A DNA stretch of 61,363 bases, counting the filler, from Kipferlia bialata (taxonomy: Eukaryota): assembly GCA_003568945.1 (NCBI GenBank). It is 4 parts of 4 records of this genome, joined end to end, with 100 filler letters (N's around TTAATTAATTAA, not from the genome) between each part and the next. Parts side by side here need not be neighbours in the genome. Positions count along the whole stretch, not along the records: positions 44,663 to 56,956 come from BDIP01000361.1; 3 more parts are not named here. One strand, written 5' to 3'. This document shows positions 20,901 through 61,363 of this stretch, one piece after another. The position numbers were made by a program, and so were the translations under genes. The notes below the pieces were generated by a model. That model searched no databases and had not been told where the DNA came from. It saw only the letters and a list, made by a program, of their open reading frames with translations. Position 1 is the stretch's first letter; every line of letters starts with the position of its first letter.

Positions 20901-22233
20901 GGCCAGTTGGATGAGTGCCGCGCCCCAGGGGAGAGTGTGTCTGACTGCATTGTCGAACCCTCTGTACCTGCTGACACCTGCAACCCTAACCCTAACTGTG
21001 ACATCTGCGTGGCCTGGGACGACTACGTATACTGCCTGGACGAGAACGGTGTTGGCGAGTGTGTTCTAGAGACACTCTCTGGCGACTGCAGCTACGTTGT
21101 TGAGACGCAGGACGAGTGTCTGTTAGAACCCCTGGATGACTGCGGGGATTGCATTGAGCTCGACGGCTCCTGGTGTTTCCGCCTCCCTCCCGCTGAGGGT
21201 GAGTGTGTTCCAGATGGAGAGCTTCCACCACCCGACTGCAACAGTATCATTACCGATGATGAAGACTGTGACCAGGGCGTGCCCGAAGACTGTGATGCTT
21301 GTCTGCGGCTGGAGGGCACTGTCTGGTGTGTCGGTGAGGGCCTAGACGACCAGTGCACATCACGGACCCAGTGCGCTATACTACAGGGGACACCCTACGT
21401 TGAGTGTACTCCACCTGATTGCTGTCCCCTCTGCCTAGACTGGGATGATCACTTCTGGTGTGTCAACGACGGTACTGGAGAGTGCAGAGAGAGCCCTACC
21501 AGTGATGAGTGTGACTACATTGTGAGGGACATCGATGAGTGTGACATTGGAAGCGGTGCTGCTACATGTGACGTATGCGTGGATGTTGGTGGAACCTGGT
21601 GCCTCAGGCTGGATGGGGACGATGAGTGCCTGTTCCCAGGAGACGACGACACAGGTTGCAACGGTCTCCTCTCTGTTGGAGAGTGTGATGACACCTACGA
21701 TACGTGTGATGACTGTTTCACTCTGGTTGACACTGTATGGTGCTACACCTGCCTGGGAGGAGAGTGTAGAGATACTCGCGACAGAGATGGTTGTGATGAG
21801 GTTGTGCTATCAGACGCCGGCTGTATCGACGTCCCTCCTGAGACCGAGTGTGATGAGTGCACTGCTCTTGGCTGGTACTACTGTGTGAGGCTGTTTGGCG
21901 ACAGTGAGTGTGTCCAGCCCGGACAGCAGTGTGACTGTGATCTTGTTGTCAAGACCCCAGGTGACTGTGACGATGTTCCTGAGTTCCCTGAGGTCTGCGA
22001 GGACTGCCTGGCTGCCGACTACACGTGGTGCGAGACCCCCTTCGGTTACCTCTGTGTGGGAGACGTCGATTACTGTGTCATCATAGGCGGTCTACCCGTT
22101 ACTGAGCCTGAGGACTGTCCAAGGGGCAACCCCACCCTCCCCTGCCCCAAGTGCGTCAACAACGGGTACCTCTTCTGTGCCAGAGGCGAGGACGAGGAGT
22201 CTTACTGCACAGACTCCGAGCTGGAGTGTCTGG
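17630..22233 (+). CDS. von Willebrand A domain protein followed by many Cys-rich CxxC-x(5-6)-WC repeats; probable surface or secreted protein; truncated at contig end, start uncertain
   Basis: MIDAS motif ISLDASGSMG (about 18065-18095), then GYTNL, VIFLSDG and VKIFSIGLG. From about 19390 a long acidic Cys-rich repeat ORF. Confidence 0.85.
19500..21290 (+). repeat. Internal coding duplications of the Cys-rich modules
   Basis: 19933-20092 is nearly identical to 20700-20858. 19640-19800 (LEPLTDCGDCIELDGSWCYRL) matches 21110-21270 (LEPLDDCGDCIELDGSWCFRL). Confidence 0.85.
20093..20606. other. Scaffold gap (N run) inside the repeat region
   Basis: Run of N. Confidence 0.99.
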
Positions 22234-22333
22234 NNNNNNNNNNNNNNNNNNNNNNNNNNNNNNNNNNNNNNNNNNNNTTAATTAATTAANNNNNNNNNNN
22301 NNNNNNNNNNNNNNNNNNNNNNNNNNNNNNNNN
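22234..22333. other. Artificial contig spacer
   Basis: N run, TTAATTAATTAA at 22278-22289 (stops in all six frames), N run. Confidence 0.97.
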
Positions 22334-31600: not shown

Positions 31601-32771
31601 TTCTGGCTGCTGTGCACCTGGGGGTAAGACAAGTGATACATATACATGCATGTTTATGTACATAGACCCACCTCCTGTCCGAATGTTGCCTCAGTCAGAC
31701 ACCCATACAGCCTGGAGAAGAACACGAGTCTGGGCGAGGAGGGGGGGTGGGGCCGGAGGGAGGGGGCACTGCAGAGCAAGGTGGGTGTGTTGGTACTGAC
31801 CCCCAGGTGTGGCTGCATGTCAAAGACCAAGAGGTAGTCTGGATACACACTGCACACAAGGTGTCTGCCGTCAGGAGCCCACTCCAGCTGCGTGGTCATG
31901 TGAGGGGGGTTGGAGGCGGGGGGAGGGCCAACGTCTGAGGGTGAGAGGTATAGCCATGGAGGAAGAAGAATGTGGGAGGGGGGGGGGGGGTCGCCCACAG
32001 GTTCTGCCTGATGGAACACAGAACATATACGTCTCCTCTCACCTCTGAATGAGCACAGCACGTGCAGGAGCAGGCCTGTCTGGCTGTCCCACACCTTGAC
32101 CACCCCCTCATCACACCCAGTGGCCAGGTACCTAAGGGTAAGAGAGAGTAGACTGATACTGATACTGATACTGATACTGATCACACCCAGTGGCCAGGTA
32201 CCTGGAGGTGAGGGAGGGGCACACTATACAGGGGTTGTATAGTACTATATGAACATACTCACATGCCGTCTGGGCTGAATGAGCTGGCAAAGACCGCCGA
32301 TCTGTGCCCCTTGAGCATGGCCAGGGGGACATGCCCCGAGGGGGAGGACGTACACACAGCCAGGGCCTGCGACACATCGGGGGAAAAGGTGAGCTCTGCG
32401 GCACACAGGATGCGGCTGGTGTGGGGGAGGGGGGACGGCATCCCCAGGCGCCTCCACAATACCCCCGACTGCAGACACCGGCTGGCATGCCTCTGTGTCT
32501 CCATCTGCTCTATCTGCCCCAACCGATATGCCTCCAGGGCAGCTGCCAGCTGTGCCACTGACCACTGTGTGGGGGTGTCTCGGGATGCCCTGTCTGACAC
32601 CATCAAGGTGTCCCCAGACTCAGACCCACCCTCATCGCTCGCAGACAGGTCAATCAGGTGCCGCAGAGACCCGTCCTCATCAGACACAGCTCGAACCAGA
32701 CCACCCAGCCTCTCGAGACCAGCCGAGAGAGAGAGATGGGGCGAGACTGGGTCTCCCCCACCTGGGCCCAT
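25652..32771 (-). CDS. BRWD/PHIP-like WD40-repeat and bromodomain protein, multi-exon
   Basis: N-terminal LKGHRSAVFASSFSPDG/RYLATGCDEGVVKVWDSQTGLLLHVL is a WD40 repeat like BRWD1/PHIP. PWTPVVGERV resembles YVPQMGDEV. C-terminal YSPVSTLARVPNYWEVVPLAADVSSVIVKLLAGQYY is bromodomain-like. Confidence 0.75.
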
Positions 32772-36185: not shown

Positions 36186-39100
36186 ATGATATGCGGCGTG
36201 ATAGTGACTCGAGCCGGTGTGAAGCCTCGGTCCATCGTGCTTGAGGTTGATGCCGCAAAGGGCACCATCACAGCTGAGCTGGTGTCCAACAGACTGAGGC
36301 AGACCACCGCTGTGCCTATCCCAGCTGTCTCCATACCCACAGATGTGTTGGGGTCCCCAGGTGTCCATCTACTGCATGTCAACGCCGACCCCGTGACTCT
36401 GTGCATGCTAAGTAGTGAGGTACCCAAGGGCCTGGTCTCAGAGGTGGCCTCTCTCAAGTGCAGCGTGTCCTGTGCGTGCTTTATACTACTACTGAGGTCC
36501 CTGTCCATCCAGAACATCCCTGCCATCGACAATGTGGCTCTGATCTCCCCTGCCTCCCTGCTGTTGTTATTGGGGTCTCTGTCTGGGACAGGTCCCATGG
36601 CCACTGAGGCACCCACCACACACAGGGGCAGGATGCACAACGCCACGCTGCTGCTAGACACCCTGCAGGGCATACTGGGCCCAGAGGTCTCGCTGAAGCA
36701 CATCGATACCCAGGTGAGGGTCACTTCATATATATGTCCTGTAGAGTATACTGCTATATGATCTGCAGTTCCGAGGTGGGGGGGGGGGGGAGTTACACGT
36801 AGTATGACGGTCACTCCCTCCCCTCTCTCCAAGAGTGACACTCCAATATTCTCTCTTCTCCCCATACCTCATCTTCTCTCTGTCTCACCCCCCAGGCCCT
36901 GTGTTCCCGTCATCCCTTTGCCATACTGTGTGCATTCGACATAGTGTACTCTCTGTTCCATGGACGGTTCCCAGACCTGCCCCAGCTACCAGAGTACAGG
37001 TGTGGCCGTGTGGATACTCTTTACTCATGAGTGTGTGATAGTTATATACCCCCTATACTCAATTACATACTCCAGGTATGTATTTACATTATATTTACAC
37101 GTCAGTGTATGATATGCCCCTATATATGAAGTCTCACCCCAGTGCCGCTGAGTTCACGTACATAGCCAAGTCTCAGCTGGCACCATCAGGAGAGGGGGAG
37201 AGAGGGGAGAGGAGGGAGAGGAGAGCACGTACACCCCGCAGGGGAGACAAAGGGCGTAGGGATACCACCCATACCCCTCGGTCACCGAGGGCGGGTAGGG
37301 AGACACGGCGGCGAACCCTGACCCCCCGCACCACTGACAGTCAGAGTGTGAGGCAGAGGCACAGCACCAGAGTCAGACATGGGGGGCATGGGAGGCATGG
37401 GAGGCATGGGAGAGAGAGTCTGGAGAGGGTGGCCAGGCGGTCCAGGTCTGTGTCTCTGCCTAGGGCAGGGTCGAGGGGCAGGGGTGGCAGAAGGGGGGGT
37501 AGGGCGTACAGGGGTGTACGTGATAGGTCCCAGTCTGCCTCTGTCCACAGGCCTAGCATGGGTAGGGGGAGGGGTAGGGAGTCGCCCTCCCTGCCCCGGG
37601 GTGCCAGACGGTCCCAGTCCCTCAGACCCCACTCAGCCAGGGTCAGTGGGTCGAGGGAGAGAGGGAGGGGGGCAGTGCGTGGCCGGAGGAGTGTCTCCCA
37701 GGGCAGGGAGTCTCTATCCCTGCGGCGTAGGAGGCCCCTCTCTCACTCAGCCAGAGGGGAGGGGGAGAGGTTCTCTGGCAGGAGTGTGTCTCTATCCAAC
37801 CCGATGAGGAGGGGAGAGAGGAGCAAGAGCAGGGGGAGGGGTAGACGGGGTAAGCCTCGCAGGCGTGTCCGGCGTACTCTGCATATGCCTGAGGGTGAGG
37901 GTCTGATGGATGCGCACCATGCTGTGACAGGGCAGAGGAGGGGGGGAGACATGCCGTCTCTGCCTGTCCTGAGGGATGTACTAGTAAGGGGGAGCAGGGG
38001 GGAGAGAGAGAGAGAGAGGAGGGACAAGGTGAGCATGAGTGTGGAGAGTGCTGCTGGGCTAGGGGGTCAGACGGTGGATGCACCAGCCAGTGATGCTGAG
38101 GGGGGGCACTCCCAGTCGCCTGAGGCACAGGACCTGTTCTCAGCTCATCCCTTACCAGCAGAGGCATCCATCAGGTAGGGGTGGATTGGGTATAAGAGTA
38201 TTGTGATACTCTCATCGTGTCAGTACTCATATGCCGAGACCCTTACTGCAGCATTGCAGGTATCAGTGTCATCTGTCAGTATCCAACACTCTCTGTATTG
38301 TCAGTATGTGTGAGTCTTATGTAAAGTATCATACGCATATGTACATGTACGTGTTCAGACCCCAGGGCCCTGTGGGGTGAGACCACCACCCAGGTCAGAA
38401 GGCAGGGGGAGAGGGAGAGAGAGAGAGAGAGAGAGCGGTCGGTGTCCCTAGCCAGGTCCAGGTCACCCTCCCAGCCACTCACACACGCAGAGAAGGTTCG
38501 ACATCTACATACATACTCACACATACATGTTCATTTGTTCATTCATATACCTTATGCTACCTCTCCCCTCTGACCCCCCAGGTCCAGCGAGCCAAGGACA
38601 GACGCATGCAACAGGACGTGGCCAGGTACAGGAAGAGTCTGCTGCTGGCCAGACAGAGTGCGGCTGAGCACCTGTACACATCACTCCTGAGGGAGGGGCT
38701 CAAGGTACAGAGTATATATATGTATGTATATATATATATACTGAGGGAGGGGCTCAAGGTATCGTCTATTGTTATATGTATATACCCTGAGGGAGGGGCA
38801 CAAGATGTGTTGCATGTTGTAACATAATGGTAGAATAGGTTGGAATATGTTTAGGATATGTGTCATAAATTTCTGCGGGTGAGGGGGCTCCAGGTGTTTT
38901 GGATGGAATGTTGATGCCAGTCCCACTCATCTCTCACACCCTCAGGTTGAGCGGCAGAACCTTGTGGACGAGGCCCACTGGTACAAGGATGAGTATGAGG
39001 AGAGGGAGAGAGAGACCCGGGTCAAGAAGGAGGCAGAGACCAAGAGAGAGAGCGACATCCTCAACATGCTACAGGAGACGGTGGAACAGGCCAGGTGGGT

Positions 39101-42238: not shown

Positions 42239-43796
42239 ATGAGTGCCAGTCAGCAGCAGGCGGCATTCTCGCTGAAGGCCCCCCCTGCTGGGGAGGTACC
42301 TGAAGGAGAGGAAGGGGCAGATGCCGAGCAGGCCAAGATGGACAAGCTGAGGAAGAGGCTGGAGATGACAGGGGAGCCCGAGGAGGGAGGTCCCAAGCGG
42401 AGGGGACCCAAGCAGGTGTGGGGTTGGATGCAGTGGGGTGTTACTAGTGCCAATACCTATAGTGCTCATACTCTATAATGTTAACCATCCCATACATATA
42501 CACCCACCCCCAGGTGGCAGAGGAGGAGAGGATGGTGCTCAAGGCCAGAGACTTCGAGATTGACTTTGACCAGCACATCGGTATGTATGTATATATATAT
42601 AGTTGTCGGTATTTGTTTCACTTTGTTACACAGTCATCTCTTGTGTACCATGTGTACACCACGTTCCATCATCATTGCATATATAGAGATGTATTTGTAC
42701 TTCGATTTCGCTGTGAATGTGTACGTCTCTCTCTCTCTCTCTCTCTCTCTCCCCCCCCCCAAAAAAAAAAACCCGAAGCATATTGTATATATTATCAGCA
42801 TCTCTCCTTCTGTGTGCATATCTATCCCAAACACCCCCATTCACCCCAGGCCGTGCCGAGGCCCTGTCCCTGGCATCCAGTCAGCAGCACAGCGGAGGAT
42901 TCAGGTGGGTGTCTATGTGTATGTGCCTTTGTGAGTATACATACACACATTGTCATCTCAGTGTTTGTATACTACTACGTATTCAGTGTGTTAGCCCTTC
43001 TGTCCATCCCTCCCATATCTCCCCCGTTGTCGGGTGTGACTGTCATATATACATATCACATCTCTCTATACACCCCTCTCACCCCCAGGTGCAAGGTGTG
43101 CAGGCTGACCTTCAAGGACAGTGCATCATACCTGGACCACATCAACTCGGACGAGCGTACGTGGATAAGTCCAAGTATATATATATATACCCAAGACTCT
43201 ACCCGTAGATGCCTCTCTTATCGTTCTCTTATTGCCTCTATGGATACATACATGTGTATAGTCCTCACCCCAGACCAGGGTGCTCTTGGTTTCCAGACCA
43301 CGGTGGAGAGAGTGTCTGCGGAGAAGGTATGTATTTGTGTGTGTATCTATATACAATGTATGACACATATGCTGTTTATTGTGTGTGCAGTGCTGATATA
43401 TGCTGACCTCAGGTCATATCCCGTATGTAGAGATCACTTACATGACATATGTATTCTATTACACATATCAATTATACAGTATCCAACCCCCCAGGTCATA
43501 GCCCGTGTCTATGATATACCCTATCATTACATACGTATACTAGTATTCATTGTCTTTGTATGCTGACCCCTTAGGTCATTGCCCGTATCAAGTACCACGC
43601 CAACCGGAAGAGGAAGGGCAAGACACTCGAGAGGAAGCTGAAGCAGATCAGGTGGGTGGATAGTGTATATATATGTATATCTATACATATAGATGTATAT
43701 ATATGTATGCTCAAGCAGATCAGGTGGGTGGATGTATGGATATATATACAGGTATATATATACATATATACAGATAGGTGTGTATATATATATACT

Positions 43797-43832
<36 letters not shown>

Positions 43833-44561
43833 ATATGTCCATATATACAGGTAGATGTATATATATGTATGCTCAAGCAGATCAGGTGGGTGTATATATA
43901 TATATATATACTGGAATATATATGTATATATATATATTTTATTATTCTCGATATATGTGTATGTATGCTCAAGCAGATCAGGTGGGTGAAGGCTTGTATG
44001 TGTGTATCCACTCCCCTAATAAGTGTATATATATGTATGTATATATGTTTCAGCATACTACCACAGTTCTCTTTTGCACAGCCCCTCACCCCCAGGGCCG
44101 ACGAGGAGGCCACCGTTATGAAGGCCACCTACTCGCACGAGAGAGAGAGAGAGAAGAGGCGGGACATGATCAAGTACCACGAGGCCAAGCTGAGGAAGAG
44201 AGAGGAGGACGAGGCGGCGGCCCTGGCCATCGCCAGCAGACCCGCCCCCGTTCCCCCCCAGAGGCCCCAGACCTTGCCCCCGATGGTCCAGCCGATGATG
44301 CCTGGCCTGGTGGATGAGACTGTGCCCATGGTGCAGCCGATGATGCCGCAGGACGTGTATGCCCCTCAGCCCCTGATGCCCATGGCCCAGCCCACCCCAG
44401 AGGACATAGAGAGGGAGATGGTCGGGATGGCACAGCCACACGTGCAGGCACAGCCCCTGATGCCTACTGGGCCGGGGGTGCCCATGGGTGGGGTGCCAGT
44501 GCAGCCGTACCCTGTGGGGGAGGGGTACCCCCAGGGACCACAGCCACCCCAGAGGATGTAG
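42239..44561 (+). CDS. ZMAT2: Zinc finger matrin-type 2 / Snu23 spliceosomal protein with Pro/Gln/Met-rich tail
   Basis: Spliced [15 protein letters not shown]...[25 protein letters not shown]...[18 protein letters not shown] matches the ZMAT2/Snu23 signature. Confidence 0.85.
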
Positions 44562-44562
44562 A

Positions 44563-44662
44563 NNNNNNNNNNNNNNNNNNNNNNNNNNNNNNNNNNNNNN
44601 NNNNNNTTAATTAATTAANNNNNNNNNNNNNNNNNNNNNNNNNNNNNNNNNNNNNNNNNNNN
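44563..44662. other. Artificial contig spacer
   Basis: TTAATTAATTAA at 44607-44618 within an N run. Confidence 0.97.
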
Positions 44663-44921: not shown

Positions 44922-45241
44922 ATGAGTGACTCAGAGACATCTGAGGTATGTATGTATCTGTATTAACATATGGATATGTAGGCTGACACATGGCCCTCCT
45001 ACTTCTCTCTCTCTTTCCCTCTCTACGTATCCATCACTATATATATGTATATATAATCAATTCTGTATACTTATACCAGGACACCTCAGAGGATGACACC
45101 TGACTTTCCCACTTCTCTCTATGTGTGTCCATATCTATAGATCTCTCTCTCTATACATACTAACTCTAGGATACCTCTGAGGACGACTCCTGGTCCCCCC
45201 ACAACGCTGTCATTGTGACATTCGACGATGACGGTACGTAG

Positions 45242-45276
<35 letters not shown>

Positions 45277-48200
45277 ATCTGTCTCTCTCTCTGCCTCTCT
45301 GACAATGAAGGTGTTGTTGCAGACAAGGAGTGGTTCACACTCGACATAGGGATACAGGTACAGATATATATTTCTATATATATGTCTTTGTATTTTTCAA
45401 TTGTATATAGAGGCTGATATCGTGTGGTTCACTTTCTACAGTATGATCATACTCACCTCAGAGGAGTGACATGGAGCGTATTGTTCACAGAAAATTCCAG
45501 TTCACGTTCACTATCATCAATGCACTATGTCTATATTACTATATTCATTCTTATATGTGTGATCTTTCGTTACTCCCCAGAGGAGTGAGCACATCGATAC
45601 GTATTTTGTATTTTGTATTATATACTATATATTATATATAGATACGTATATACATTTGCTTTCATATCGGTTATTGTATGCATATATACACAGAATAGTC
45701 ATACTAAATCCAGAGATGCACTATATATACATACATACATACATATATATATGCTATATATACATACATATACACACTCACCCCAGAGGAGTGACATGGA
45801 GCACATCTATCTAGTATGCACTATATTTATATATACTATAGATATATATATATGCTATGTATTGATGTATATATACATCCTTATTCCAGAGGAGTGACAT
45901 GGAGCACACTGTCAAGGGCTACTCCATCGATGAGACCCACGTGATGCTGATGTGCATATCATGGTGGGTGGTGATATAGTAGACCCATACACTGACTCTC
46001 TATATAGATACCTATATGTATATACCTTATGTGATGCTGATGTGCATATCATGGTGGGTGGATGTATGTCTAGGGAGTGTATGCATGTAAAGTGACTCCA
46101 CTTCACTTTGTTCATATTTTATACTAGTTTCTTGATTCTATTAATGAATTATTATATCATTAATTCACTTCTTTGTCCCCTCTCTGACCAACCGCTACAT
46201 TATTATGTTCCCCCGCTCTGTCTCTCTCTCTCTCTCTATTCCTACTCACCCCTAGGCACAACTACTCTCTGACCAACCACTACATGTACACGCTGTGCCT
46301 GGACTCACTCGAGTGCCACAGGTATATATATACCAATAATCGATATATACACACACAGTTACTACTGAGAATGATATGTATTACATACAGTGGATCATCT
46401 AGCATTGTGCCTGGACACCCTGGGGTGTCACAGGTATACAAGTATATATATGTGTATGTATGTATATACTACTATATGTATGTACATACATGTCTAACCC
46501 ATAGACACACTCAAGTAGTCCATGCCGAGGGTGTATCTCAGCCCCAGCAGGAGAGACTGGGGAAGAAGGAGGGAGAGGGGGAGGGGGAGGGGTACCAGAG
46601 TGTCAACATGTGGAAGGGACAGCCCACACAGTTCAGGTATATAGAGTATATATACATACATAGATATATACGTATATATATATGGACATGTATGTGATAC
46701 TGATACTGATACATGTGGAAGGGGCAGCCCACACAGTTCAGGTATTGTTGTTTCATATGTATATACTACTATATGGACATGTATACTCTCTCCACTGTTC
46801 TTTCCCTCCTTCTCACCCCCTCAGGCTTGGTGACCGACTCATCCTGCTGGGCTAGACATACATATAGTACAGCACACACATATATATGTATATATGTGTG
46901 TATGAGTATGTATGTATGAGTATACTGAGATACTTACCCAGGCTTGGCGACAGGCTCATCCTGCTTGGCAACAGACAGCCCAGGTTCTCCGTCAAGGGAG
47001 AGGTACGGAACAGTAAGACGGTTTAGATATCAGTATAGGAATTGATATAGTGGATATTGTGACCACTATACCCCCTTTGTGGCACCACTCACCTGAAACC
47101 TTCCCTCTCATATCTCTCTCTATTCATTGATGTGTGTCTGTATATACTCTCGCTCACTCTATCTCTGCCTGATAGCTCACTTTCCCATTATCCTATTCTC
47201 TCTCTCTCTCTTATGCTAGAGCACCGTGAACTGGATATAGTAGCACCCTCTTCTAACAACAGCTCTGCGTGATGGCCCACTATCCCCCTATCCCAATCTA
47301 TCAACTCACTGAACATGTATACAACATGTATACTTGACCTATATCTGATATATCCAATATCAGCTCTGCATGATGGCCCACTGTCCCTCAGACGACACGT
47401 GGGAGAGGCTCACACCCCCACCTAAGGTAGGTGCACAGTGTATGATACATATGAGATATTTTTGAAAGTGTACAGTATTTATGCATTGATCCTATGATAG
47501 AGTCTGTGCAATGAGATTCGGTATATACACACACACTCTCTCTCTTTCCGAATATATATCGATGAAAGTACATGACCCTGACCCCCAGGCCATTATGGAG
47601 TCTATCAATGGCTATGGGTACCACTCCTCCTCACACTTGAGGTATCGGCATTGTCTCATATGTATGTATATCACATGAGGTATATGTCACTAAGGATCCT
47701 CAGAGTCTATTATGTGTGTTATATACACTAAGAGTGTGTACTGCTTGGCTATGGGTACCACTCGTCCTCACACCTCAGGTATCGGCATCGTCTTCTCACA
47801 GTATACATGTAGTATGATATCAAATTCAGGTAAGATCTCTCACTTCAGTGTGGGTGTGGTCGGTGACACCGCCTACTTCATCAAGAAGGAGAGTGACATG
47901 GGATACAGGTATGGTTTCAATACTTAACCTAAAAATGTATTGACACTATTGTATACACTAAATACAAGTAGTAATATATACTACATTCAGATGCACATTG
48001 AATTCTTAGTGAATATTTGATTCTCTTACTGTAGATACTCCTTTGATGAGGGATGGTCTGAGCAGTCTCTGTCTGGGGTCGGTCTCAAGCTGGAGAGGAG
48101 GAGTGGGTTCTTTAGACGAAATGGGGAGGTTAGTGTGGGTCCTTGTTAGTATGTAGCATCATTATGTGGGTATGTATTATCTTACATGTGGGTCAGTATT

Positions 48201-49052
48201 ATCCCAGAATGGGGACCCACCTGCCTAGACCCCCTGCTGACTCCCAGTATGCCCTCAATGTCATGGTGGGATTGCCACAGCACCTACTGCTACAGGTATG
48301 GGGACTGTCTACACTATATAGAGTACATCAAGGAACCCATCTCTATTTGCATTGTCGCCCTTATTTCGTTGTTTCTGTTTGGTATAGTCAGTCAGTATTC
48401 TGTTGTTGTCTCACCGTCAGAAGGCCGATTGGATCATCGCAGACCCCACCGACTACTACTCATGCCCATGGGAACAGCACTTGCACACATGGGACACGGT
48501 GTCTGAGGTATATACATATATATATATACATATGGTTAATAGTATCGGAGATTTGTAATATATGTGTGCTAATACCCTATTAATCCGTAATATCTCCATA
48601 GCACTTGTACACATGGGACACGGTGTCTGAGGCATTATTCTGCAATATAGTATCCCACACCTCTCTCCCTCTCACTAATGCCTTAGGCTTGGGCCGAGAT
48701 ACCCTTTTTGAAGGAGGACTATATGTGTCTCTGAGTGTGTATATGACTACATCTCTTCCTAATTAAGATGAATCACTGAGTGAACCGTGCTCCTCTTTGT
48801 ATAATGTACATAGACATTTATTGATTGCCAAACGGATTTCCTGATTGATTATAGGAATGGACCGAGATCCCCTTTGTCGGAGCGGACGGTGTCACCAAGG
48901 CCGAGTGTCCCCGTATGTCCATGGCTGTACCTCTGCAGCCCAACGGAGGTGCCGACTGTAAGTGGATAGTGTACAGGAATAACAGCTATGATCAGGGGAA
49001 TACCCAGAGTTCACCAGCTCTGTCTGTTATGGAGTTCTGGGAGAAGGAATAG
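44922..49052 (+). CDS. Kelch/beta-propeller-like protein encoded by many short exons
   Basis: ATG 44922 (MSDSETSE/DTSEDDSW...). Exons with MYTLCLDSLECH, VGVVGDTAYFI, YSFDEGWS, HLHTWDTVSE. Last exon 48857-49052 EWTEIPFVG...MEFWEKE*. Confidence 0.65.
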
Positions 49053-49267
49053 ACACACAGACTGTAGGTGTCAATGCGCTTAGACTGGTCACTGTATTTG
49101 TCATTAACTGTGTAGTATAATCTGTATGCTTTACAGTAATAGTAGTACTACTAACAACATGCCTACACACAACTGATACCCTCAAGAATAGAGATGACTG
49201 CAGTTGGTGCACACACCCTAGTAGACTGGCTCAACTCTGTAGTCCATCATCACACTGCCAACCACAC

Positions 49268-50257
49268 ATGTCTGATACAGTCCCAGTCCCCCTGTGGCAG
49301 GAAGAGCAGTGTGACTTTCCTCTCTCTGTCTTCCCCTTCAGCTGCTCTGGGGCCATCAAGACAGGGCACAACGAGGTGCTAGTGGAGTCATATGATGAGG
49401 ATAGACACCTAGTACTTGCCCTGGTGCGTCTACTCTCAGGTGGCACAGTTGAGAAGGAGCTTATTCAGAAGCCAGACCCTCAATTCAACACAGCCAAGGT
49501 GTATGGCGTGTGTCACTGGGGGGAGGTCTACATGTACACTCGTGATACGGACAGCACCCTCTATATACTTGATCTTGCTACACACAGTTGGCGCTCAGTT
49601 GATGCCCCATTGCACCTCGGACAGAGTGACAGGGTACAGAGGATACGGCAAGTGTCTCTTTGGCTTGGCCAGGTATGCCTCTTGAGTGACGGAGCAGATG
49701 TCGTGGTGGTTGGCATCCAGTGTGACCGTAGCACTAGTGACGGCTATATATACACAGTAGGCATGTGGTACTATAACCCTGAGAGAGGAGCAATGGTCTG
49801 TGCAGGAGGAGACACACACACCTATGAGGATAGGCCACCTTCACCCGTATTGTATTTACTAGATGGAGTCCGGTACCTTAGAGCGGGCACAGATGTGTAC
49901 AGCTACTGCGACATTGGGCAGTGGACACTAGTACCTGAGTCTGAGTTAACAAGCGGCAATGGATTAGCTGGTTTGTACCCAGTACGCGATTCATGGGGTA
50001 AGTCTATAGTTCTGGCTCCCCTAGAGAGACGCTTCTCAAGGGGCATATTCTGTGCAGCCTTTGATACAGTGTCATCTCAATGGAGTCTGTTGGGACATAC
50101 ACATGAGGATAGATACGTCCTTTTCACCCCCGCTAATGCACTCTGGTGTGGGGATAGGGATGGGTCTGTGATGCGGTATCTGGACGGTGGCCTAGTATAC
50201 CCCCACGAGTCACGTCTGTGGGCCACAGATCCAGGCAACAGCCGACTCTTGGAGTAG
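49268..50257 (+). CDS. Intronless kelch-like beta-propeller protein, 329 aa
   Basis: Single ORF with motifs GEVYMY...LYILDLATHSW, YYNPERG, FDTVSSQW. Confidence 0.6.
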   Translation: MSDTVPVPLWQEEQCDFPLSVFPFSCSGAIKTGHNEVLVESYDEDRHLVLALVRLLSGGTVEKELIQKPDPQFNTAKVYGVCHWGEVYMYTRDTDSTLYILDLATHSWRSVDAPLHLGQSDRVQRIRQVSLWLGQVCLLSDGADVVVVGIQCDRSTSDGYIYTVGMWYYNPERGAMVCAGGDTHTYEDRPPSPVLYLLDGVRYLRAGTDVYSYCDIGQWTLVPESELTSGNGLAGLYPVRDSWGKSIVLAPLERRFSRGIFCAAFDTVSSQWSLLGHTHEDRYVLFTPANALWCGDRDGSVMRYLDGGLVYPHESRLWATDPGNSRLLE

Positions 50258-50739: not shown

Positions 50740-50927
50740 GGAGTCGGATATATGACCAAGGGTGTACGTGCCTGTCCCTAACAGTACCCCTGCAGCATAA
50801 GGGAGGTGCTGAGGCAGCTGACTGTAAGTGCATAGTGTACAGGAATAGCAGCTGTGGGCAGCAATGCACTCAAGGCTCGCCAGCGCTATCTTTCATGGAG
50901 TTCTGGTATTCAGAAGCCACAGAATAG
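50740..50927 (+). pseudogene. Paralogous fragment of the last exon of the 44922-49052 gene
   Basis: Protein-level similarity to exon 48857-49052; no upstream exons seen. Confidence 0.5.
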
Positions 50928-51717
50928 AGACACAGAGATTATGTGAAGTCATTGCATATGCAAAGTATACAGTTTGCACCAGCTTTAAGACTGATACCCT
51001 CACGTCCAAAGGGATGACTACAGTTGGTGTTGACTCTCTACTAGACTGCCTTAGCTTTCTTAGATTGATACAAACACATCACTACACCCTTTTTCTTTTA
51101 CCTCCGGTGCAATGGGGAGGGGGGGGGGGGTCACTATATGTAGTGTCGGGAAGGAGGGGGAGAAAGGGGTGGGGGAGACGCTGACACTCTTATGGACCCA
51201 CAAGAGGTGATCTGATATCTGCGGTGGGGATGGGACAACAGGACATCTAGGAGTCCAATCACACGGTGTAGAGACTCACATCAAGTTCTGAACCTATACA
51301 CATTCGAAAGCCCGGAACATTCTAGGAATCGTATCAGAGTAGATACGGCTTCTTGTCTATGCTCTAGAGTCTATGGTATTGTCCACGCTGTGTTGAACTA
51401 GCAGTTGTATAGTATAGGGTATCCCGTGTATCTTTCCTCACGACTGAAAGGTTTGATTTTACTCCTTTACTCACTCCGTCTACACGGATTGGTTATGGCA
51501 AGTCTCACTCTTGAGCCGCCCACTAACACTACTTGGGGTTACTGAGAGAGTATTTTCGCTGTCCTGGGCAAATATCTCATGTAGGTGCAATTTCTCAGCG
51601 AGAAAAAGGGTTTTCGAGCATCCACACAACTGAACAGAGCTCCACTTGCACGTTGCGTGCATATGGAGCCTGAGAGGAAAGACTCGGTTCCCGATGCGTC
51701 TCTAGGACTCACATAAG

Positions 51718-52363: not shown

Positions 52364-52903
52364 ACTATACCACCGTGTCTCCGTATGGACATGATGCACC
52401 CGTAAGGACACTACCCCCTCATTTGAGAGAGCTGTGTATGTAGTGTATTGCATTGGGACTGCCAATTTGGCAGACATCCAAGGAAGTAAATGACTAGTAT
52501 TCAGTCAATGGGTCCACATGCGATTTTTCAATATATCTATTAGCAGACACTGGTGTATATCAGTGTGCAAGTCGCCCCTGTTCTGCCCTAGACCCTAAAT
52601 ATTGCATGTCGTATCAGTAACAGAAATGTTGTCTGTTCCTCTCCACTGTCAAATGAAACCTATACATAGCGACTAACGTAGCAGCTGCAGATAGTATTAG
52701 GGCCCAGTGACTGATAACTATCTGTGTTTTGTCATGGCACGTCTGAAATATTTGCAGAGCATTTGACTGAGAGGAGGTCTCTCTCAAATAGGGGTTTAGC
52801 TGTGATCTCTGTGACAAGTCTACAGCTGAATACTACACGCATTCTCTTCGTGATCATCACATCAGGCCTCATACCTCTGTTTACCTTGCTAGTATAGAGT
52901 ACG

Positions 52904-54340
52904 ATGGAGGTAGCAGTGGCTGCTCTGAATGCAGACATTGGTGGAGGGCCCAGTGAAGTGGAGGTGAGTGGTGTGTACGAAGAGGACTCAATATAGGTCT
53001 GATACGTCATGTATTGTTCGTCACCCCCAGTCACCGTGTTGTCTCTGTTACGACCCCGACTCTGACCCTCTGACTATGGGGTGTGGCCATGTGTTCTGTC
53101 TGGGGTGTATGACAGCATTGCTGGAGGGGAGGTACGGGGTCTGACTCAGATAGTATACATACACACAAAGTCATAACACAAATCTCCACATTGGATTTGA
53201 TAGGTCCTGCCATGTGTCATATACACAGGTGACCAGAGTCATCCTTCACAATTGTTGAATCAACATAGGCTCTCACATTGTATTATACAATGATTGTATA
53301 TCTATCTTATATACACAGGTGGTATGGCCGGTCGGGTGCCAGGATCAGCTTTGGCTTCATGGGGTGTCCCATGTGCCAGAGTGATATATCAGGTCACCCT
53401 GTCTTGGATACACTGATGGCACCCCTTGTCACACTCAGAGAGAAGGTGCACAGGATGGCAACAATGAGACAGGTGTGTATACGTATATCCTGTATATATT
53501 GAGTAATGCATATGTTAACGAGATAGACCTGAGTACATCATATTACTCAATATTTTGAGACAAAGAAGAGAATATGTCTCCTTGTCACACTATTACACGG
53601 TGTAAATAGTGTATACATTAGTGCAACATACACTCTATAGGCAATACGTCACTGTACGGTTACCCTAACCCGTCAGCAGATGGAGCATGGCAGTGGGTCA
53701 GTGTCCGATGCCATCAGGGAGTATGCATACTACCAGTGCCACAGGTCGGTTGCAGTAGAGTAGGGTAGTGTTATTGTAGTATCTCTTTGAGCATCCTCCC
53801 GGAGGACCCCCGCGATCCACAAGCATTATATGTAGTAACTGTAGGTGTGCTGAGCCCTACTATGGAGGTGCAGTGGAGTGTGCCGCAGGGAGTGAGACAG
53901 AGTACAACCAGGATGACCTCACATGCCCTAGGTATACATACTGAATCTAGTAGATCAATAGTGTCTATATTCTCAGTGTATTACTACCTACTGGCCGCAG
54001 AGTCATCACCTAACACAGGTGCACCCGTCTTCAGTCCCCCACCTCCCTCCCTGACACCTGTTCCTCCCACGGCACAGACTACATCCAGTGGAAGTGCAGG
54101 TACTGCTGCAGTATGGCAGTGTTCTTCTGTTTCGGCACCACCCACTTCTGCGTCGAGTGCCACAACAACTACAGCAAGTGTCAGGCAGCAGAGAAAGCGG
54201 GTACCCTACCCCCATGCCCTGCTGGCCCTGTACTAAATGGCCTAGCTGGAGAGTGTCCATTGGGATGTGCCCACCCCCCCACAGGCAGTGAGTTCTGCAT
54301 GGGGTGTGCAGAATGCAGACTGAAGGAGGAGGACTACTGA
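52904..54340 (+). CDS. Small MYCBP2/Highwire/RPM-1-type RING-Cys-relay E3 ligase domain protein
   Basis: Spliced CCLCY...GCGHVFCLGC...ARISFGFMGCPMC (RING), then YAYYQCHRCAEPYYGGAVEC...HGTDYIQWKCRYCCSMAVFFCFGTTHFCVECH...HPPTGSEFCMGC, closely matching the PHR-family C-terminus. Confidence 0.9.
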
Positions 54341-54573
54341 GTATAGCACTATTTTTCATACACAATAAATGATAGTCCATAATGGACACGAATACGTTCA
54401 ACACTTGGAGAATGACACATATACGGAACGGGATGTACCGAGTGCAGACTCAGGGAGGAGGACTACTGAATAGTAATAGAAACATGATACACTAACCACT
54501 GGATAAGTGACCTATACGGATCATTCTATTACATATCTACATTTCATTTCATCAACACACACTCCTAAGGGGC

Positions 54574-55959
54574 CTAGAGGGGCATCCCATCAAGTGCCAC
54601 GAGGATAGACCCCAGCACCTCTGCCCTCACTCTCTGCACCTCTGTTCTAGTGGTACCAGGGCTCAGGAGAGAGAGGACCTTCTCAGCACATGCACCTAGC
54701 AGGGAGAGAGGGGTATGGGCTGGGAATGCCCCCACTGCCCATAGCAGATGCTCCACCACAGAGGGTGGCAGGGAGGGTGTCTCACCCTGGGTGCACACAC
54801 AGAGGGAGAGAGAGAGACTACCGCAGCACAGCATGTCCACACACACGCCATCAGCTGAGGAAGGGGCCGCTCTAATAGCACCCCTAGTCTCGTCCAGCTG
54901 CATCTGGGCCATGCCCTCAGCACAGTACTCCACGGCACCCCCTGCTAGGCATAGACATGCCAGTGCGTACGTAGTGGCGTGTGCCCTCTTCCTGTACAGC
55001 CTCTGGTGCGGCACCTGCAGGGCGAGGGCTGCCAGGGCCCCTGCTCTAGAGGGTGTCTCTATGGTGTCTGGGAGGAGCACACACCTGCGCAGGGTGCGGC
55101 CTAGGCTGGCCGCATCTACACTGGACTGGGGGGTCTTTAGGGGGTGGGACAGAATGGGCTGGGTGTAGTGGGAGGCCACGGAGAGAGAGCACGCAGAGGG
55201 GGCCGCAGAGAGAGAGAGGAGGCCGGTCACGTCGGTGTACCTGGGGGTGAGGGGTTAGTGAGAGAGCAGCCAGTCTAATAATACAGCTCTATACTCACAC
55301 ACAATATAGACACATACCTCCTCATTGGTTGGGCACTGCCTATGGGCTCTGCGAGGGGTGTCTCGAAGAGTGCGTCCAGGGAGAGTAGGAGGGGTGATAG
55401 GGAGGGAGCCACCCCATCCAAGCACAGAATGTGCTGGAGCAGGGCAGAGGTACCCACACCTAGGGACACAGGTGCATCTGTGGCGTTGGTAGTCGCATAG
55501 GTACCAAGCTCCCTTGAGAGGTACTGCACCACCTTGGTGCACAGTGTGCCCTCGGAGGGTGTGCGTGTACGGCTGCATGCCTGCTCTACTGCCAGGGCTG
55601 ACAATAAGGGTGTACCGAGAGAGAGAGAGAGAGAGAGAGAATGTGCACCATGACCATACCTGACACCAGTGCCGAGGGGAGGGAGAGAGAGAGGGAGGCA
55701 GGGGTGGAGACAGCGGGGACAGAGAGGGAGAGGTCCACCTCCCCACTGAGCACGGCCTCTGCTATGACAGACAGGGGGGTCAGGGTCAGGGAGTAGGCCA
55801 TGAGGCGGAGGACTGGGGGGTGAGGGAAGGCAGGGGGATGACACTTGTCTCTATTAACGGTGCATCCTATATGCACAATACCTGCTGCCAGCAGCCTGTG
55901 CATCTGGGGCATGTGGCCATGGGAGGGGAGGGCACGCACAAGGGCATGGCCCACCTAGG

Positions 55960-55994
<35 letters not shown>

Positions 55995-56956
55995 ATGATC
56001 CACACTCACCGCAGCCAGGGCCTCTGCCAGAGGCTTAGGGAATGGTGTCAGGGCATGGCCAGCAGCCAGTGCCTCAGTGAGTGAGAGGACTGCCTGTGCC
56101 CCCTCCTCAACAAGTGAGGCATGGAGGGGGGTGTCGATGCTGCCACACAGGATGCCATCCACCCTGGGGTGAGAATGAGAATGACCACATACAATATTAA
56201 GGAATACTAAGGTAAAATATAGCAGGGTAGGTATAGCCATACCTGTCGTAGACCTCCAGCAACACTCCCCCTGCCACACTACAATACTATACTTACGCTG
56301 AAGACAGCAAACATGTACTAGGGAATGTGTGTGCAGCCATACCTGTCGTAGACCTCCAGTAGCACTCCCCCTGCCACACACACAATGGAGGGACAGAGGG
56401 GGGCAGAGTCTACGGACACAGATGCCCTATCTGCTGTCTGGGCCAGTGAGACCAGCTCGGTAACCCACCCAGCGGCATGGAGGGGGGCAAAGTGGCCTGG
56501 TATATAAGAGAGAGTGACGACACACATATGTATACAACACATTGCCACAAAATAGAGATCTACATAAATATACACGTATGTATATATATCATATAAACTA
56601 CTCTACATACACACACATACCGGGGGCAGGTGCCTCTGGGAATGTGCTGAATGGCAGTGTGAGTCTAGACACTGATAGGGCAGAGGAGAGAGAGAGGTGC
56701 ACGGGGATGCGGCTGGCAGGGATAGACATGACACGGGAGATGAACTCGCCTGGGGGTTAGGGATGCTGTCAGAGTGGCCTACTGACCACCGCTGTCTCTC
56801 CCTCACTTTCTCTATGTATATATTCCACAGCTGTATAGACATACTTCTCCATTACCTGAGTCTGCTGCAAGTGCTGTGAGGGTGGCCACCACGGCTGTCC
56901 TGAGTCTGGCATCCACATGGGGGGCAGACAGGACAAGCCTATGTATTAGACATGAG
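54574..56956 (-). CDS. Hypothetical multi-exon, Leu/Ala-rich helical protein; 5' end cut by contig edge
   Basis: GC-rich exons flanked by ctcacccccag acceptors and gt donors; last exon within ORF 54574-55230. Confidence 0.5.
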
Positions 56957-57056
56957 NNNNNNNNNNNNNNNNNNNNNNNNNNNNNNNNNNNNNNNNNNNN
57001 TTAATTAATTAANNNNNNNNNNNNNNNNNNNNNNNNNNNNNNNNNNNNNNNNNNNN
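56957..57056. other. Artificial contig spacer
   Basis: TTAATTAATTAA at 57001-57012 within an N run. Confidence 0.97.
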
Positions 57057-57123: not shown

Positions 57124-60100
57124 GATAGTCAGGGACAGGGCAGTGGCACTCTATGTAGACATGCACGGACACTCTAGGTATTGTACAGATCAGTGTATGT
57201 ATTATGTTCAATACCAATGAAGTGGAGTGTTATCGCCACAGCAGACGTGTTCCTCTCTCCCTTACTCCAGGCGCAAGAACGTCTTCATGTATGGGTGTGA
57301 CAACAAGAGAGACCCGGCACTGCTGCACTACGAGAGGGTTCTTCCCAGGTACATTTAGTAAGTATATGTAGTATATATAGAGGATTGAATATTCACATGT
57401 TGATATCTCATCTCGCTGTCTCTCTGTCTCTCTCTCATTCTCTTTCTCTCTGCACCCTTACCCTAAGGATCCTCGATGACTTTGGCCCCTCCTTCAACTA
57501 CGAGGATTGCACGTTCAAGGTATATACGACTAGTCATCAATAATATATGTATATATGTATGTATGTATGTATATTAACTACCTAGTATATATGCTATACT
57601 CTATAGATACATCCTTCAACTACGAGGACTGTACATTCAAGATATGGGTATGTGTGTATATACTAAGTGTATACTATACTCTATATTCTTTCCTGCATAC
57701 TAGTTCTAAGACATATATCTAATACATATATCTAATACATATTAATGCAGCGTAACAAGGAGGGCACTGCCAGGCTGGTTGTCAACACTATATATTATTC
57801 CTCATATATGTCACATATATATAGTATTCTATATTAGATGCTAGTGTAATACGTATGCTCATACCAGATGCAGCGTAGCAAGGAAGGCACCGCCAGACTG
57901 GTTGTGAGTATAGGATATACACTCTTCATATATTCTTATGTATATGATATACTATCCATACTAACCCTCTAGATGCAGAGGTCTAAGGAGGGCACCGCCA
58001 GACTGGTTGTTAGTGTGTATATATATATATACATATCCAACATGAGTTGGATCCAATATACTCTGTACTGTATACTATGTATCATCTTCTTATACCAGAT
58101 GCAGCGTAGCAAGGAGGGCACCGCCAGACTGGTTGTGAGTATATACATATACATACTCTCCTCTCCCTATTTATTAATGTATGTATATAAATATATACCC
58201 ATACCAGATGCAGCACTCTAAGGAAGGCACCGCCAGACTGGTTGTCAGTATATGAGTATATACCATACTATCCAATACCATATGTATTATGTATATATAT
58301 ACTAACTGTAGATGCAGCGTAGCAAGGAGGGTACAGCCAGACTGGTTGTGAGGAAGGAGTACAACGTGGTCAACTCCTTCACCATGGAGGCATCGTTCTG
58401 TGGGACAAATCAGGGTATGTATACCCTCAATGTATTCTATTTGTGCTGCGTATGTGTGTGTACTCCGTGTTGTGACTCTCAGGCAAGTACTGTGACATTC
58501 AGTTCAACGAGGCTGATACATGCATATCCCGATACAACGCATATAGAGACATACTTACTGTATATTATGAGCATAAGTGATTATATACTAACCCCCCAGG
58601 CAAGTACTGTGACGTCCAGTTCAACGAGGCTGTTATTTGTATATATACCTATATCAAATAGTATATACATATATATATATATATAAGAATACTTATACAT
58701 CTATGTACTTATCATCAGGCAAGTACTGTGACATCCAGTTCAACGAGGCTGATGTACATATACATTTAAATAGTTTTACTGTTATAGTAATATGTGTGAA
58801 TACATACTCTAACTCCTAGGCAAGTACTGTGACATCCAGTTCAACGAGGCTGCCCTGATGGAGATGGGGGCGGCATTAGGTATATATAGTGTATAACTAT
58901 AGTATAAATATATAGAATAGTATACAATAGTATGTGGATCATTATTTCTTAGATCTATTTGTATATATATTAGAGGCTGCCCTGATGGAGATGGGGGCGG
59001 CACTAGGTACAATATGTATTGTACAAAGAATAGTATATATAGGGAGAGAGAGATAGAGAGAGAGTGGCCCTGATGGAGATGTGGACGGCACTAGGTATAG
59101 GGATACAATCTTTCACATATTGTCAGAATATTCAATTCTCTCTCTCTCTCCCCCCCTGTACACCCTAATATACTAGGCAAGGCCATTCTGCACTCCTTTC
59201 CTACTCCGTCCTTCTCTCTCTCTCTCTCCCTCTCTACACCCTTTAATCAATCAGGCAAGGCCATCCTGCACTCCTTTGCCACTGACACCACCCCCGGTGA
59301 TGCTGCCACTGATCTATCACACCCTGGTGTGCCCCCTCTAAGTGAGGCTGGTCGAGAGGTATGTACTAGTGTATTGTATATATTAATATTATATAATGTA
59401 TGTAGCATATATATACACTGACCTCTCCCACCCTGGGGTACCACCCCTGTCTGAGGCTGGTAGAGAGGTATACATACTATGTATATAGTATAAGTATACT
59501 ATAGTATAGTATATATATAAGAATAGTATATATGTATATATATATACACTGACCTGTCGCACCCTGGGGTGCCTCCATTGAGTGAGGCTGGGAGAGAGGT
59601 ATGCATATATACTAGTGTATATATATATTTTTACATTTATAAGGTGCCACCATTGAGGGAGGCTGGTAGAGCGGTATTGACTCTCTTTCTCTCTATCTCT
59701 CTCTCTCTCTCTACACTCTTTACCCCAGGTTCTCAACACCATCCGGACTGAGCTCCAGCGGACAGCAATGAGGAAGGAGGAGGAGGTGTGTATAGATTTA
59801 TATATGTGTGTATTCTAAAGTGGGTATTGTTTATACTGTGTATATACTATTATGTATGTACTACTATACATATGGAATATATAACTCCAGCGGACAGCTA
59901 TGAGGAAGGAGGAGGAGGTGGGGTGTATAGATTCATTAATATATGTTTGCTTCCTATAGTGTCTACCATACTCTTACTCTCTAGGTTGAGCCCATCGATG
60001 ACTCCGACTCAGAGTCTAGTATGTATATATATATCCTATATATATGCCAGGTTCCTATCTATATATCTATATATACATATATATACATATATATACATAT

Positions 60101-61363
60101 ATATATACATATATATACCTGTATATACCACTCATACTAGGTAGAGCCCATCGATGACTCCGACTCTGAGTCTGATGAAGAGCCAACAATCAGAGACCAG
60201 ATCAAGGTATATATACCCCAGAACGCTAAACGATAAACTTTCTATACTAAACGGCAGAGACCAGATCAAGGTAATAGGTATATATGCCCCTATATATACC
60301 ATGAAACGCTAAACGCTAAACGCTAAACGGCAGGGCAAGAAGGGCAATACCCCCCCACCTGATGCTGACACCCCTGCTGATGATGTCAACCCATACGAGG
60401 TGCTGGACAGTCTATCTTCCCTGCAGGTATGTACAAGGATGTATATATATATATATTCGTACTTTACAGTATATAAGTATATATATATACCCCTGCTGAT
60501 GATGTCAACCCCTATGAGGTGCTGGACAGCCTGTCCTCCTTGCAGGTATGTACATACACATATATATGTGTATATATGTATGCATTTGCTGGACTGTAGA
60601 ATCTACTGTAGTTGTATTGTTAGTGGCTACTTACTCCCTAGGTGGCCCTCAAGAGAGATTATATGTATAATAGTGAGTACTATAATGTATACTCTATATA
60701 TATGTAGTATAATAGTGCCTATTCTAACCCTAGGCCGCTCTCAAGAGAGACACGTCCAAGGACAAGTAATATTTTATGATATATACACACGTGTGATATA
60801 TTTAATGCTATTTCTGACTCTCTAGGCCGCCCTCAAGAGAGACACGTCCAAGGACAAGAAGATTGTATTCACAATAGTGTCTATTATATTATATACTGTG
60901 TATGTAGTATATTAGTGCCTATTCTGACACTCTAGGCCGCCCTCAAGAGAGACACCTCCAAGGACAAGAAGAAGAAGAAGAAGGCAAAGAAGGAGAAGGT
61001 ATCTATTGTACAATGTATTATACGTTTATAGTCACTTGTGTCACTGTATATTACATACGCATATTCTCTCTCTCTCTCTCTCTAGCCCCTTATTGTCAGG
61101 CTGCCAAGAAGAAGAAGAAGGTCAAGAAGAAGGAGGAAAAGGAGAAGGAGAAGGAAATGGAGGTATGGGATATATAAGTAATATGTATATATGTATATAT
61201 ATGTGTGTAGAGAGAGAGAGAGGGAGAGAGAGATAGAAGAAGGTGAAGAAGAAGGAGGAGAAGGAGAAAGAGAAAGAGAAGGAAATGGAGGTATGGGACA
61301 TATATGTTAGTATATATCTATAGAGAGAGGGGGGGGGGGGGGGGGAAGAGGAAGAAAAAGAAA
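57124..61363 (+). CDS. Cytosolic carboxypeptidase (M14D, CCP/AGBL/Nna1 family, tubulin deglutamylase type), partial; Lys/Glu-rich tail
   Basis: Spliced LYVDMHGHSRRKNVFMYGC...ERVLPRIL...FNYEDCTFKMQRSKEGTARLVV...NSFTMEASFCG...FNEAALMEMG shows the Zn-ligand HGH and catalytic FTxE motifs of CCPs. Confidence 0.92.
57610..61300 (+). repeat. Intronic tandem copies of exon edges in most introns of the CCP gene
   Basis: ATGCAG...GTTGT x6 (57745-58350); GCAAGTACTGTGAC..CAGTTCAACGAGGCTG x4 (58483-58852); GCCCTGATGGAGATG x3; GAGGCTGG.AGAG x4; GCCCTCAAGAGAGA x4 (60640-60965). Confidence 0.95.

Follow-up and report, generated by a model that had tools for sequence, protein, structure and literature searches.

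The gene end of KIPB_002260 and the copy behind its stop codon

A tandem copy of a gene end is found behind a stop codon in Kipferlia bialata, within a 61,363-nucleotide stretch of DNA (assembly GCA_003568945.1) that was analysed as a whole and is referred to here as the window. The window is made of several joined pieces, as indicated by the N44-TTAATTAATTAA-N44 spacers at 22234-22333, 44563-44662, and 56957-57056. Such a diverged copy of a coding edge, lying next to the edge that it resembles, is termed an echo below. The locus carries the following features.

52904-54340, plus strand: MYCBP2-like RING and tandem-cysteine gene, KIPB_002260, 263 aa in 6 exons
54301-54343, plus strand: working gene end, of which the echo is a copy
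54341-54429, plus strand: spacer, which likely forms the working copy's 3′ UTR and includes a putative AATAAA element at 54364
54430-54472, plus strand: echo, in which the last 13 codons of the MYCBP2-like gene, its stop, and 3 nt recur in diverged form
54514-55500, minus strand: 3′ part of a convergent gene, covered by an X2 contig (a run that we presume to be RNA) with one CT..AC joint

The last exon of KIPB_002260 (54019-54340, 322 nt) matches the tandem-cysteine region of MYCBP2 with E = 1e-29 and shows 100% identity to the K. bialata entry KIPB_002260, whose end coincides with the first stop. The original prediction had described a repeat of this gene end after the stop, carrying three silent and two replacement changes and with no intron involved, and on each of these points it is borne out. 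The echo and the working end are identical at 36 of 43 positions at a spacing of 129 nt, a pair that self-BLAST returns with E = 2e-4, and a degenerate motif of the shared core occurs at exactly two places in the window, two matches being reached in 0 of 100 shuffles. Translation yields GCTECRLREEDY for the echo and GCAECRLKEEDY for the working gene end. The silent changes fall in Gly, Glu, and Leu codons, and the replacements are A>T and K>R; both cysteines are retained, and TGA is intact in both copies. The six base differences across the codons of this echo are by themselves without statistical power. The gene model has no intron at the stop edge, and none of the five introns of KIPB_002260 contains an echo.

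Beyond the shared tract, the two copies part ways. The 90 nt located 3′ of the gene end and of the echo align no better than shuffled sequence (24% of 1000 shuffles reached the score), and these non-coding flanks are not microsatellite. A single contig from the DNA run X1 covers 52400-55500 unbroken with 0 differences, which argues against a joining error, although X1 perhaps derives from the same source DNA and is then no independent sample. The repeat after the stop codon is confirmed as genuine. On the other strand, the X2 contig of the convergent gene extends to 54514, which is 45 nt past the stop of the echo; the MYCBP2-like gene and the echo lie outside the coverage of the X2 contigs, which have no bearing on their expression.

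The echo is unusable as an alternative last exon: the stretch that separates it from the stop has three AGs, and after each of them the echo's frame meets a stop codon. A branch-like motif is absent from 54341-54430, a motif that is itself present in only 17 of 34 modelled acceptors. The echo would be silent DNA and no exon. As a single case, the copy behind the stop shows that a splice site is unnecessary for echo formation, and it serves as a control for splicing-independence.

Echoes at coding edges across the window

The K. bialata genome is described as containing 124,912 canonical introns, with k-mer evidence for diploidy (PMC5874029). The word stems 'duplicat', 'allel', and 'heterozyg' have 0 occurrences in the main text of that paper, whose supplements may bear on the matter, and the part of PMC6679479 that concerns Kipferlia deals with spliceosomal proteins only. 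A nucleotide scan of the window retrieved 53 filtered local repeat pairs, with 0 in three shuffles. Four genes were modelled by hand, each with an open frame (the models of genes A, B, and E are our own), and an edge-anchored scan of these genes identified 42 echoes, spread over 25 of 74 coding edges, while cross-gene control scans gave an echo in 3 of 1968. Two of the 42 were dropped as doubtful (48778 and 61257) and a third as low-complexity and out of register (61284), leaving 39 echoes at 24 of the 74 edges. The other genes of the census, and one echo outside it, are as follows.

42239-44561, plus strand: gene A (Snu23/ZMAT2-like), 4 echoes at 2 edges
44922-49052, plus strand: gene B (unnamed), 12 retained echoes at 10 edges
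57124-61162, plus strand: gene E, which from its motifs we take to be carboxypeptidase-like, 22 retained echoes at 11 edges, in arrays of up to 5
56235-56279, minus strand: donor-side echo of 56335-56379 in a minus-strand gene, outside the counts

Confirmation of the family of gene E was not obtained from the one exon used. The minus-strand echo at 56235-56279 has two differences from 56335-56379, one in a Leu codon and one at a silent site. Echo length ranges from 15 to 57 nt; over all 42 echoes, its median is 30 nt, and the repeat unit has a median of 105 nt. Donor-side echoes lie downstream of their own exon and acceptor-side echoes upstream of it. Echoes represent head-to-tail copying across a coding edge. 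Many echoes keep the GT or AG and adjoin real splice sites, and arrays of 3-5 copies end on one common inner base.

Echoes are concentrated in TA-rich introns. The 17 introns with an echo measure 127-792 nt, and 17 echo-free introns measure 67-269 nt. Bases 1-42000 hold just two echo families despite many acceptor-like motifs, and few (TA)n runs occur there; these families, at 32107-32216 and 38686-38804, each adjoin an intron edge and are uncounted. The same part of the window contains a Cys-rich coding region (19385-22035), internally repeated and broken by a 514-N gap; some of the window-wide repeat listings omit the cysteine-rich repeat gene at 19300-22300.

Several arrays and neighbouring sequences have features of their own. 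At 57745-58352, five acceptor-side echoes are found, four of which end at one base directly before a donor-like GT; if included in the mRNA, these echoes would be micro-exons. In the unit at 60207-60333, 13-16 nt from the end of an exon are followed by an entire diverged intron, with a common CAG at the joint; the unit represents a potential frameshifting micro-exon. The only two (ACTGAT)n arrays found in the window (32152-32181 and 46695-46712) each touch an echo at its inner junction, perhaps as a result of iterative synthesis at the joined end. Downstream of gene B, an intronless ORF of 329 aa without a Pfam match occupies 49268-50257. The last exon, stop, and 3′ flank of gene B (48878-49267) also have a diverged copy at ~50740-51087, some 1.86 kb further downstream, in which indels break the frame and the non-coding flank is alignable; unlike the short echoes, this looks like an ordinary older segmental copy.

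Extent of similarity, codon positions, and alternative origins

Similarity between an echo and its exon extends a median of 4 nt beyond the coding edge (at most 10 nt in 32 of 39 echoes, and 3 nt for the stop-side echo). Mean identity is 0.91 in the coding part and 0.67 in the flank, compared with 0.63 for unrelated flanks, and flanks overall display a slight excess of similarity (p = 0.003-0.02). In eight echoes with no more than 1 mismatch over at least 28 nt (97-100% identical), flank identity is 0.68 versus 0.65 for unrelated flanks, and 2 of the 8 flanks lie above the 95th percentile of the null. A young plain duplication would bring a near-identical flank with it, so near-identical echoes with unrelated flanks argue against such an origin. 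Conserved coding sequence, diverged silent sites, and unalignable non-coding sequence are what two diverged alleles or orthologues display when compared.

Among the alternatives, a head-to-tail duplication between sister chromatids, by slippage or end joining, with the exon end later replaced by allelic gene conversion, fits the narrow unit length around the 105-nt median, the preference for TA-rich introns, the intron similarity that some units retain (e.g., 60642-60826 and 60270), and the inner ends common to members of an array. It further posits that the edge-straddling copy survives, that the population is very diverse, and that non-coding sequence turns over very fast. We judge it unlikely: flanks must become unalignable while second codon positions change by just 3%, the stop-side flanks, which are not microsatellite, align no better than shuffles, and diverged alleles are still required.

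The distribution of mismatches over codon positions bears on a simpler alternative, in which tandem duplication is followed by neutral decay and the silent bias stems merely from selection on the working exon. This is the simplest known process, it requires no alleles, and some echoes do look decayed, having lost GT or AG at 57641, 48631, 57745, and 47163. For a dead copy beside a selected exon, however, the rate at position 3 can be at most twice that at position 2. Across the 39 echoes, mismatches at codon positions 1, 2, and 3 number 26, 12, and 81 (397, 396, and 391 sites), or 6.5%, 3.0%, and 20.7%, and the 375 codons contain 80 silent and 23 replacement changes. The resulting ratio of position 3 to position 2, 6.8, exceeds the 2:1 ceiling (p = 6e-6). 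Echoes inside one array are not independent; with the nearest echo per edge only, the counts are 14/6/46 (p = 3e-4 against the same ceiling). Simulation of neutral decay under the same detection rule does not reproduce the observation either, giving a ratio of position 3 to positions 1+2 of ~0.75, with a maximum of 1.9 in 1200 runs, against an observed 2.13.

Other properties of the mismatches can be set beside these counts. All 42 echoes together give dS 0.48 and dN 0.044, with transition bias uncorrected. Two-step silent switches across serine codon sets are present among the echoes, including one in a 17-codon echo that has 10 codons altered and 0 residues changed. GC at third positions shows no erosion (290 in echoes vs 277 in exons), within introns that are AT-rich, and the replacements found in echoes are milder than random (p = 0.016). 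Two arrays display three states at several third positions. Differences of echo versus echo (12/9/29) exceed pure neutrality (p = 3e-4) and do not exceed the bound for time-stamped snapshots (p = 0.16). Neutral decay is already contradicted in the window, the unrelated flanks of near-identical echoes included, and we hold it to be improbable as an origin. Simple decayed duplicates are excluded by the silent-biased mismatches together with the abrupt end of similarity where coding sequence ends; decay of the exon as it now stands does not account for the echoes.

If echoes were what is left of duplicated exons that once functioned (as mutually exclusive or alternative last exons), having diverged under selection before being truncated, or if they are still in use, a low dN/dS and unalignable flanks would follow directly. 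No usable acceptor stands ahead of the stop-side echo, however; echo lengths (15-57 nt) and unit lengths are unrelated to exon length (322 nt here), and arrays of 3-5 copies stop at one inner base, all of which renders this origin improbable. An artefact of assembly or library from mixed haplotypes is very unlikely. In its favour, the only DNA run that covers the echo, X1, may be the window's own source; against it, the separately built X1 contig runs through the two copies without a difference, and its depth of 481 resembles the 443-492 of other long contigs.

Two further candidates were rejected. A cDNA-templated origin was set aside on inspection, as the DNA after an echo consists of splice signals and intron-like sequence, not of the next exon. 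Selective load via echo-to-exon conversion was set aside by argument, as conversion that frequent would erase the silent differences.

Proposed recombination between diverged alleles, and related systems

The origin that we consider probable is that echoes are the coding ends of diverged alleles, which would have been placed or refreshed by a recombination in which only exons pair, and completed by end joining. The stop-side echo, of some 40 bases, is likely to derive from an allele of KIPB_002260 that had diverged strongly. Under such a mechanism, alleles would differ at roughly one third of silent sites, with introns and UTRs unalignable; the required silent divergence (about 0.3-0.5) exceeds the within-species values of most eukaryotes, a point against this reading. 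A broken end would invade the other allele inside an exon, copy about 100 nt, and thereby cross the edge into non-coding DNA where no match remains. The second end would then be unable to anneal, leading to end joining of the microhomology type, and the outcome would be two allelic versions of one edge arranged head to tail. Later out-of-register pairing between exon and echo could multiply or refresh echoes, and the survivors would be only those products that keep one intact exon. Such exon-echo pairing fits the arrays that share a common inner end yet have three third-position states.

The copied tract has the signature of a diverged coding template, and similarity ends where homology to such a template would end, as a one-sided invasion or template switch would have it. 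Microhomology at the junctions appears, by eye, at a few sites (60270 and the 58312 array) and not at most. A predicted rise of decay with distance from the exon was not seen among the echoes, nor was a predicted excess of replacements at inner ends (14 of 194 codons in the outer parts and 9 of 181 in the inner parts). No donor allele was found by searches that cannot prove absence. Among contigs at 80% likeness, which show presence and not absence, no second diverged contig covers the last exon, and no candidate emerged when K. bialata was searched for a second, short copy of the protein end. A metagenome scan for the shared core of the echo gave 0 matches, and a protein scan identified one distant locus (L001, 59%) without a comparable repeat at the match.

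Features of the repair machinery fit diverged-allele recombination. In the part of PMC8516963 drawn on here, metamonads are described as lacking canonical end joining and fornicates as lacking Rad51A, and the repair genes listed for K. bialata include PolQ, Dmc1, Rad52, and Msh2 and do not include Ku70. Yeast repair can switch to a template that is 72% identical, and the passages of that source on yeast give an average of 23 bp for repair-associated duplications and a requirement of about 200 bp of homeology for template switches (PMC12891019). Such a length exceeds what most exons here provide, which counts against the diverged-allele reading.

The preference in the original prediction for a DNA-level, homology-anchored origin over a splicing-dependent one holds insofar as no splice site is needed and the signature of a diverged coding copy is present, with the reservation that no donor is seen. 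Its further proposal that the process targets coding edges is not demonstrated: in the modelled genes, an echo stands at 1 of the 2 stop edges and at none of the 3 start edges, and window-wide scans contain no second short stop-adjacent echo. Position at an edge needs no targeting, given that an edge-straddling copy alone is both harmless and recognisable: copies within exons would mostly be lethal, copies within introns would not stay recognisable for long, and homology between alleles stops at the coding edge in any case. The strong evidence for a homology-anchored mechanism is the silent bias combined with the sharp end of similarity, and not position by itself.

A broader proposal, which we put forward tentatively, is that Kipferlia introns and gene ends form a fossil archive of other alleles: in a cell without Ku and Rad51, alleles would recombine although their divergence lets nothing but exons pair, and each failed capture of the second end would leave a scar of 100 nt with an exon edge from another allele. 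If diverged-allele recombination held genome-wide, a single assembly would evidence that very diverged alleles recombine in a metamonad and would allow its hidden diversity to be estimated, and introns would have a further way to grow. According to the relevant part of PMC8516963, no direct observation of sexual processes has been made in metamonads. Were the archive reading true, one genome would record sex or parasex together with extreme diversity, and scarring would be a major source of Kipferlia intron length. Echoes with an intact GT or AG beside real sites also raise a question about splicing.

No description of the echo pattern was found in the literature searched, which did not extend to subscription papers, but several known systems are related. 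In the AGGT model of Rogers, introns are reportedly gained by tandem genomic duplication, and the likeness lies in a short tandem duplication that involves exon sequence. Kipferlia makes no new intron, the copy standing after a stop or in an existing intron, and intron gain was rejected for the present locus because the copy lies behind the stop and AGGT is absent from 54301-54343. A second related system is one-sided invasion, or aborted SDSA with end joining, as reportedly set out by Belmaaza and Chartrand in 1994. This process and yeast template switching would share with the echoes, as interpreted here, a homology-anchored copying of a diverged template and a second junction that is non-homologous or based on microhomology. 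The yeast work concerns induced breaks, and a genome-wide archive at exon edges is not described in the part of that source drawn on here (PMC12891019).

A structural parallel is intron 7 of human F7, where a 37-bp VNTR has its first unit across the exon-intron boundary, as described in the relevant part of PMC1557585. Both systems consist of head-to-tail copies of an exon end; in F7, these include the donor, the intronic pseudo-sites are silent, and the first donor is used. The F7 pseudo-sites, as presented there, are of identical sequence in a regular minisatellite at one site, whereas Kipferlia copies differ by silent changes. In further contrast to F7, Kipferlia echoes have unrelated flanks, affect donor and acceptor sides as well as a stop, and occur at a third of modelled edges; neither the similar non-coding part nor the neutral decay of an F7-type plain duplication was found. 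Duplicates of exon edges have been known as curiosities, but those described here bear a pattern of silent changes such as coding alleles show after evolving separately. Kipferlia echoes are tandem copies across a boundary, which likely preserve other alleles.
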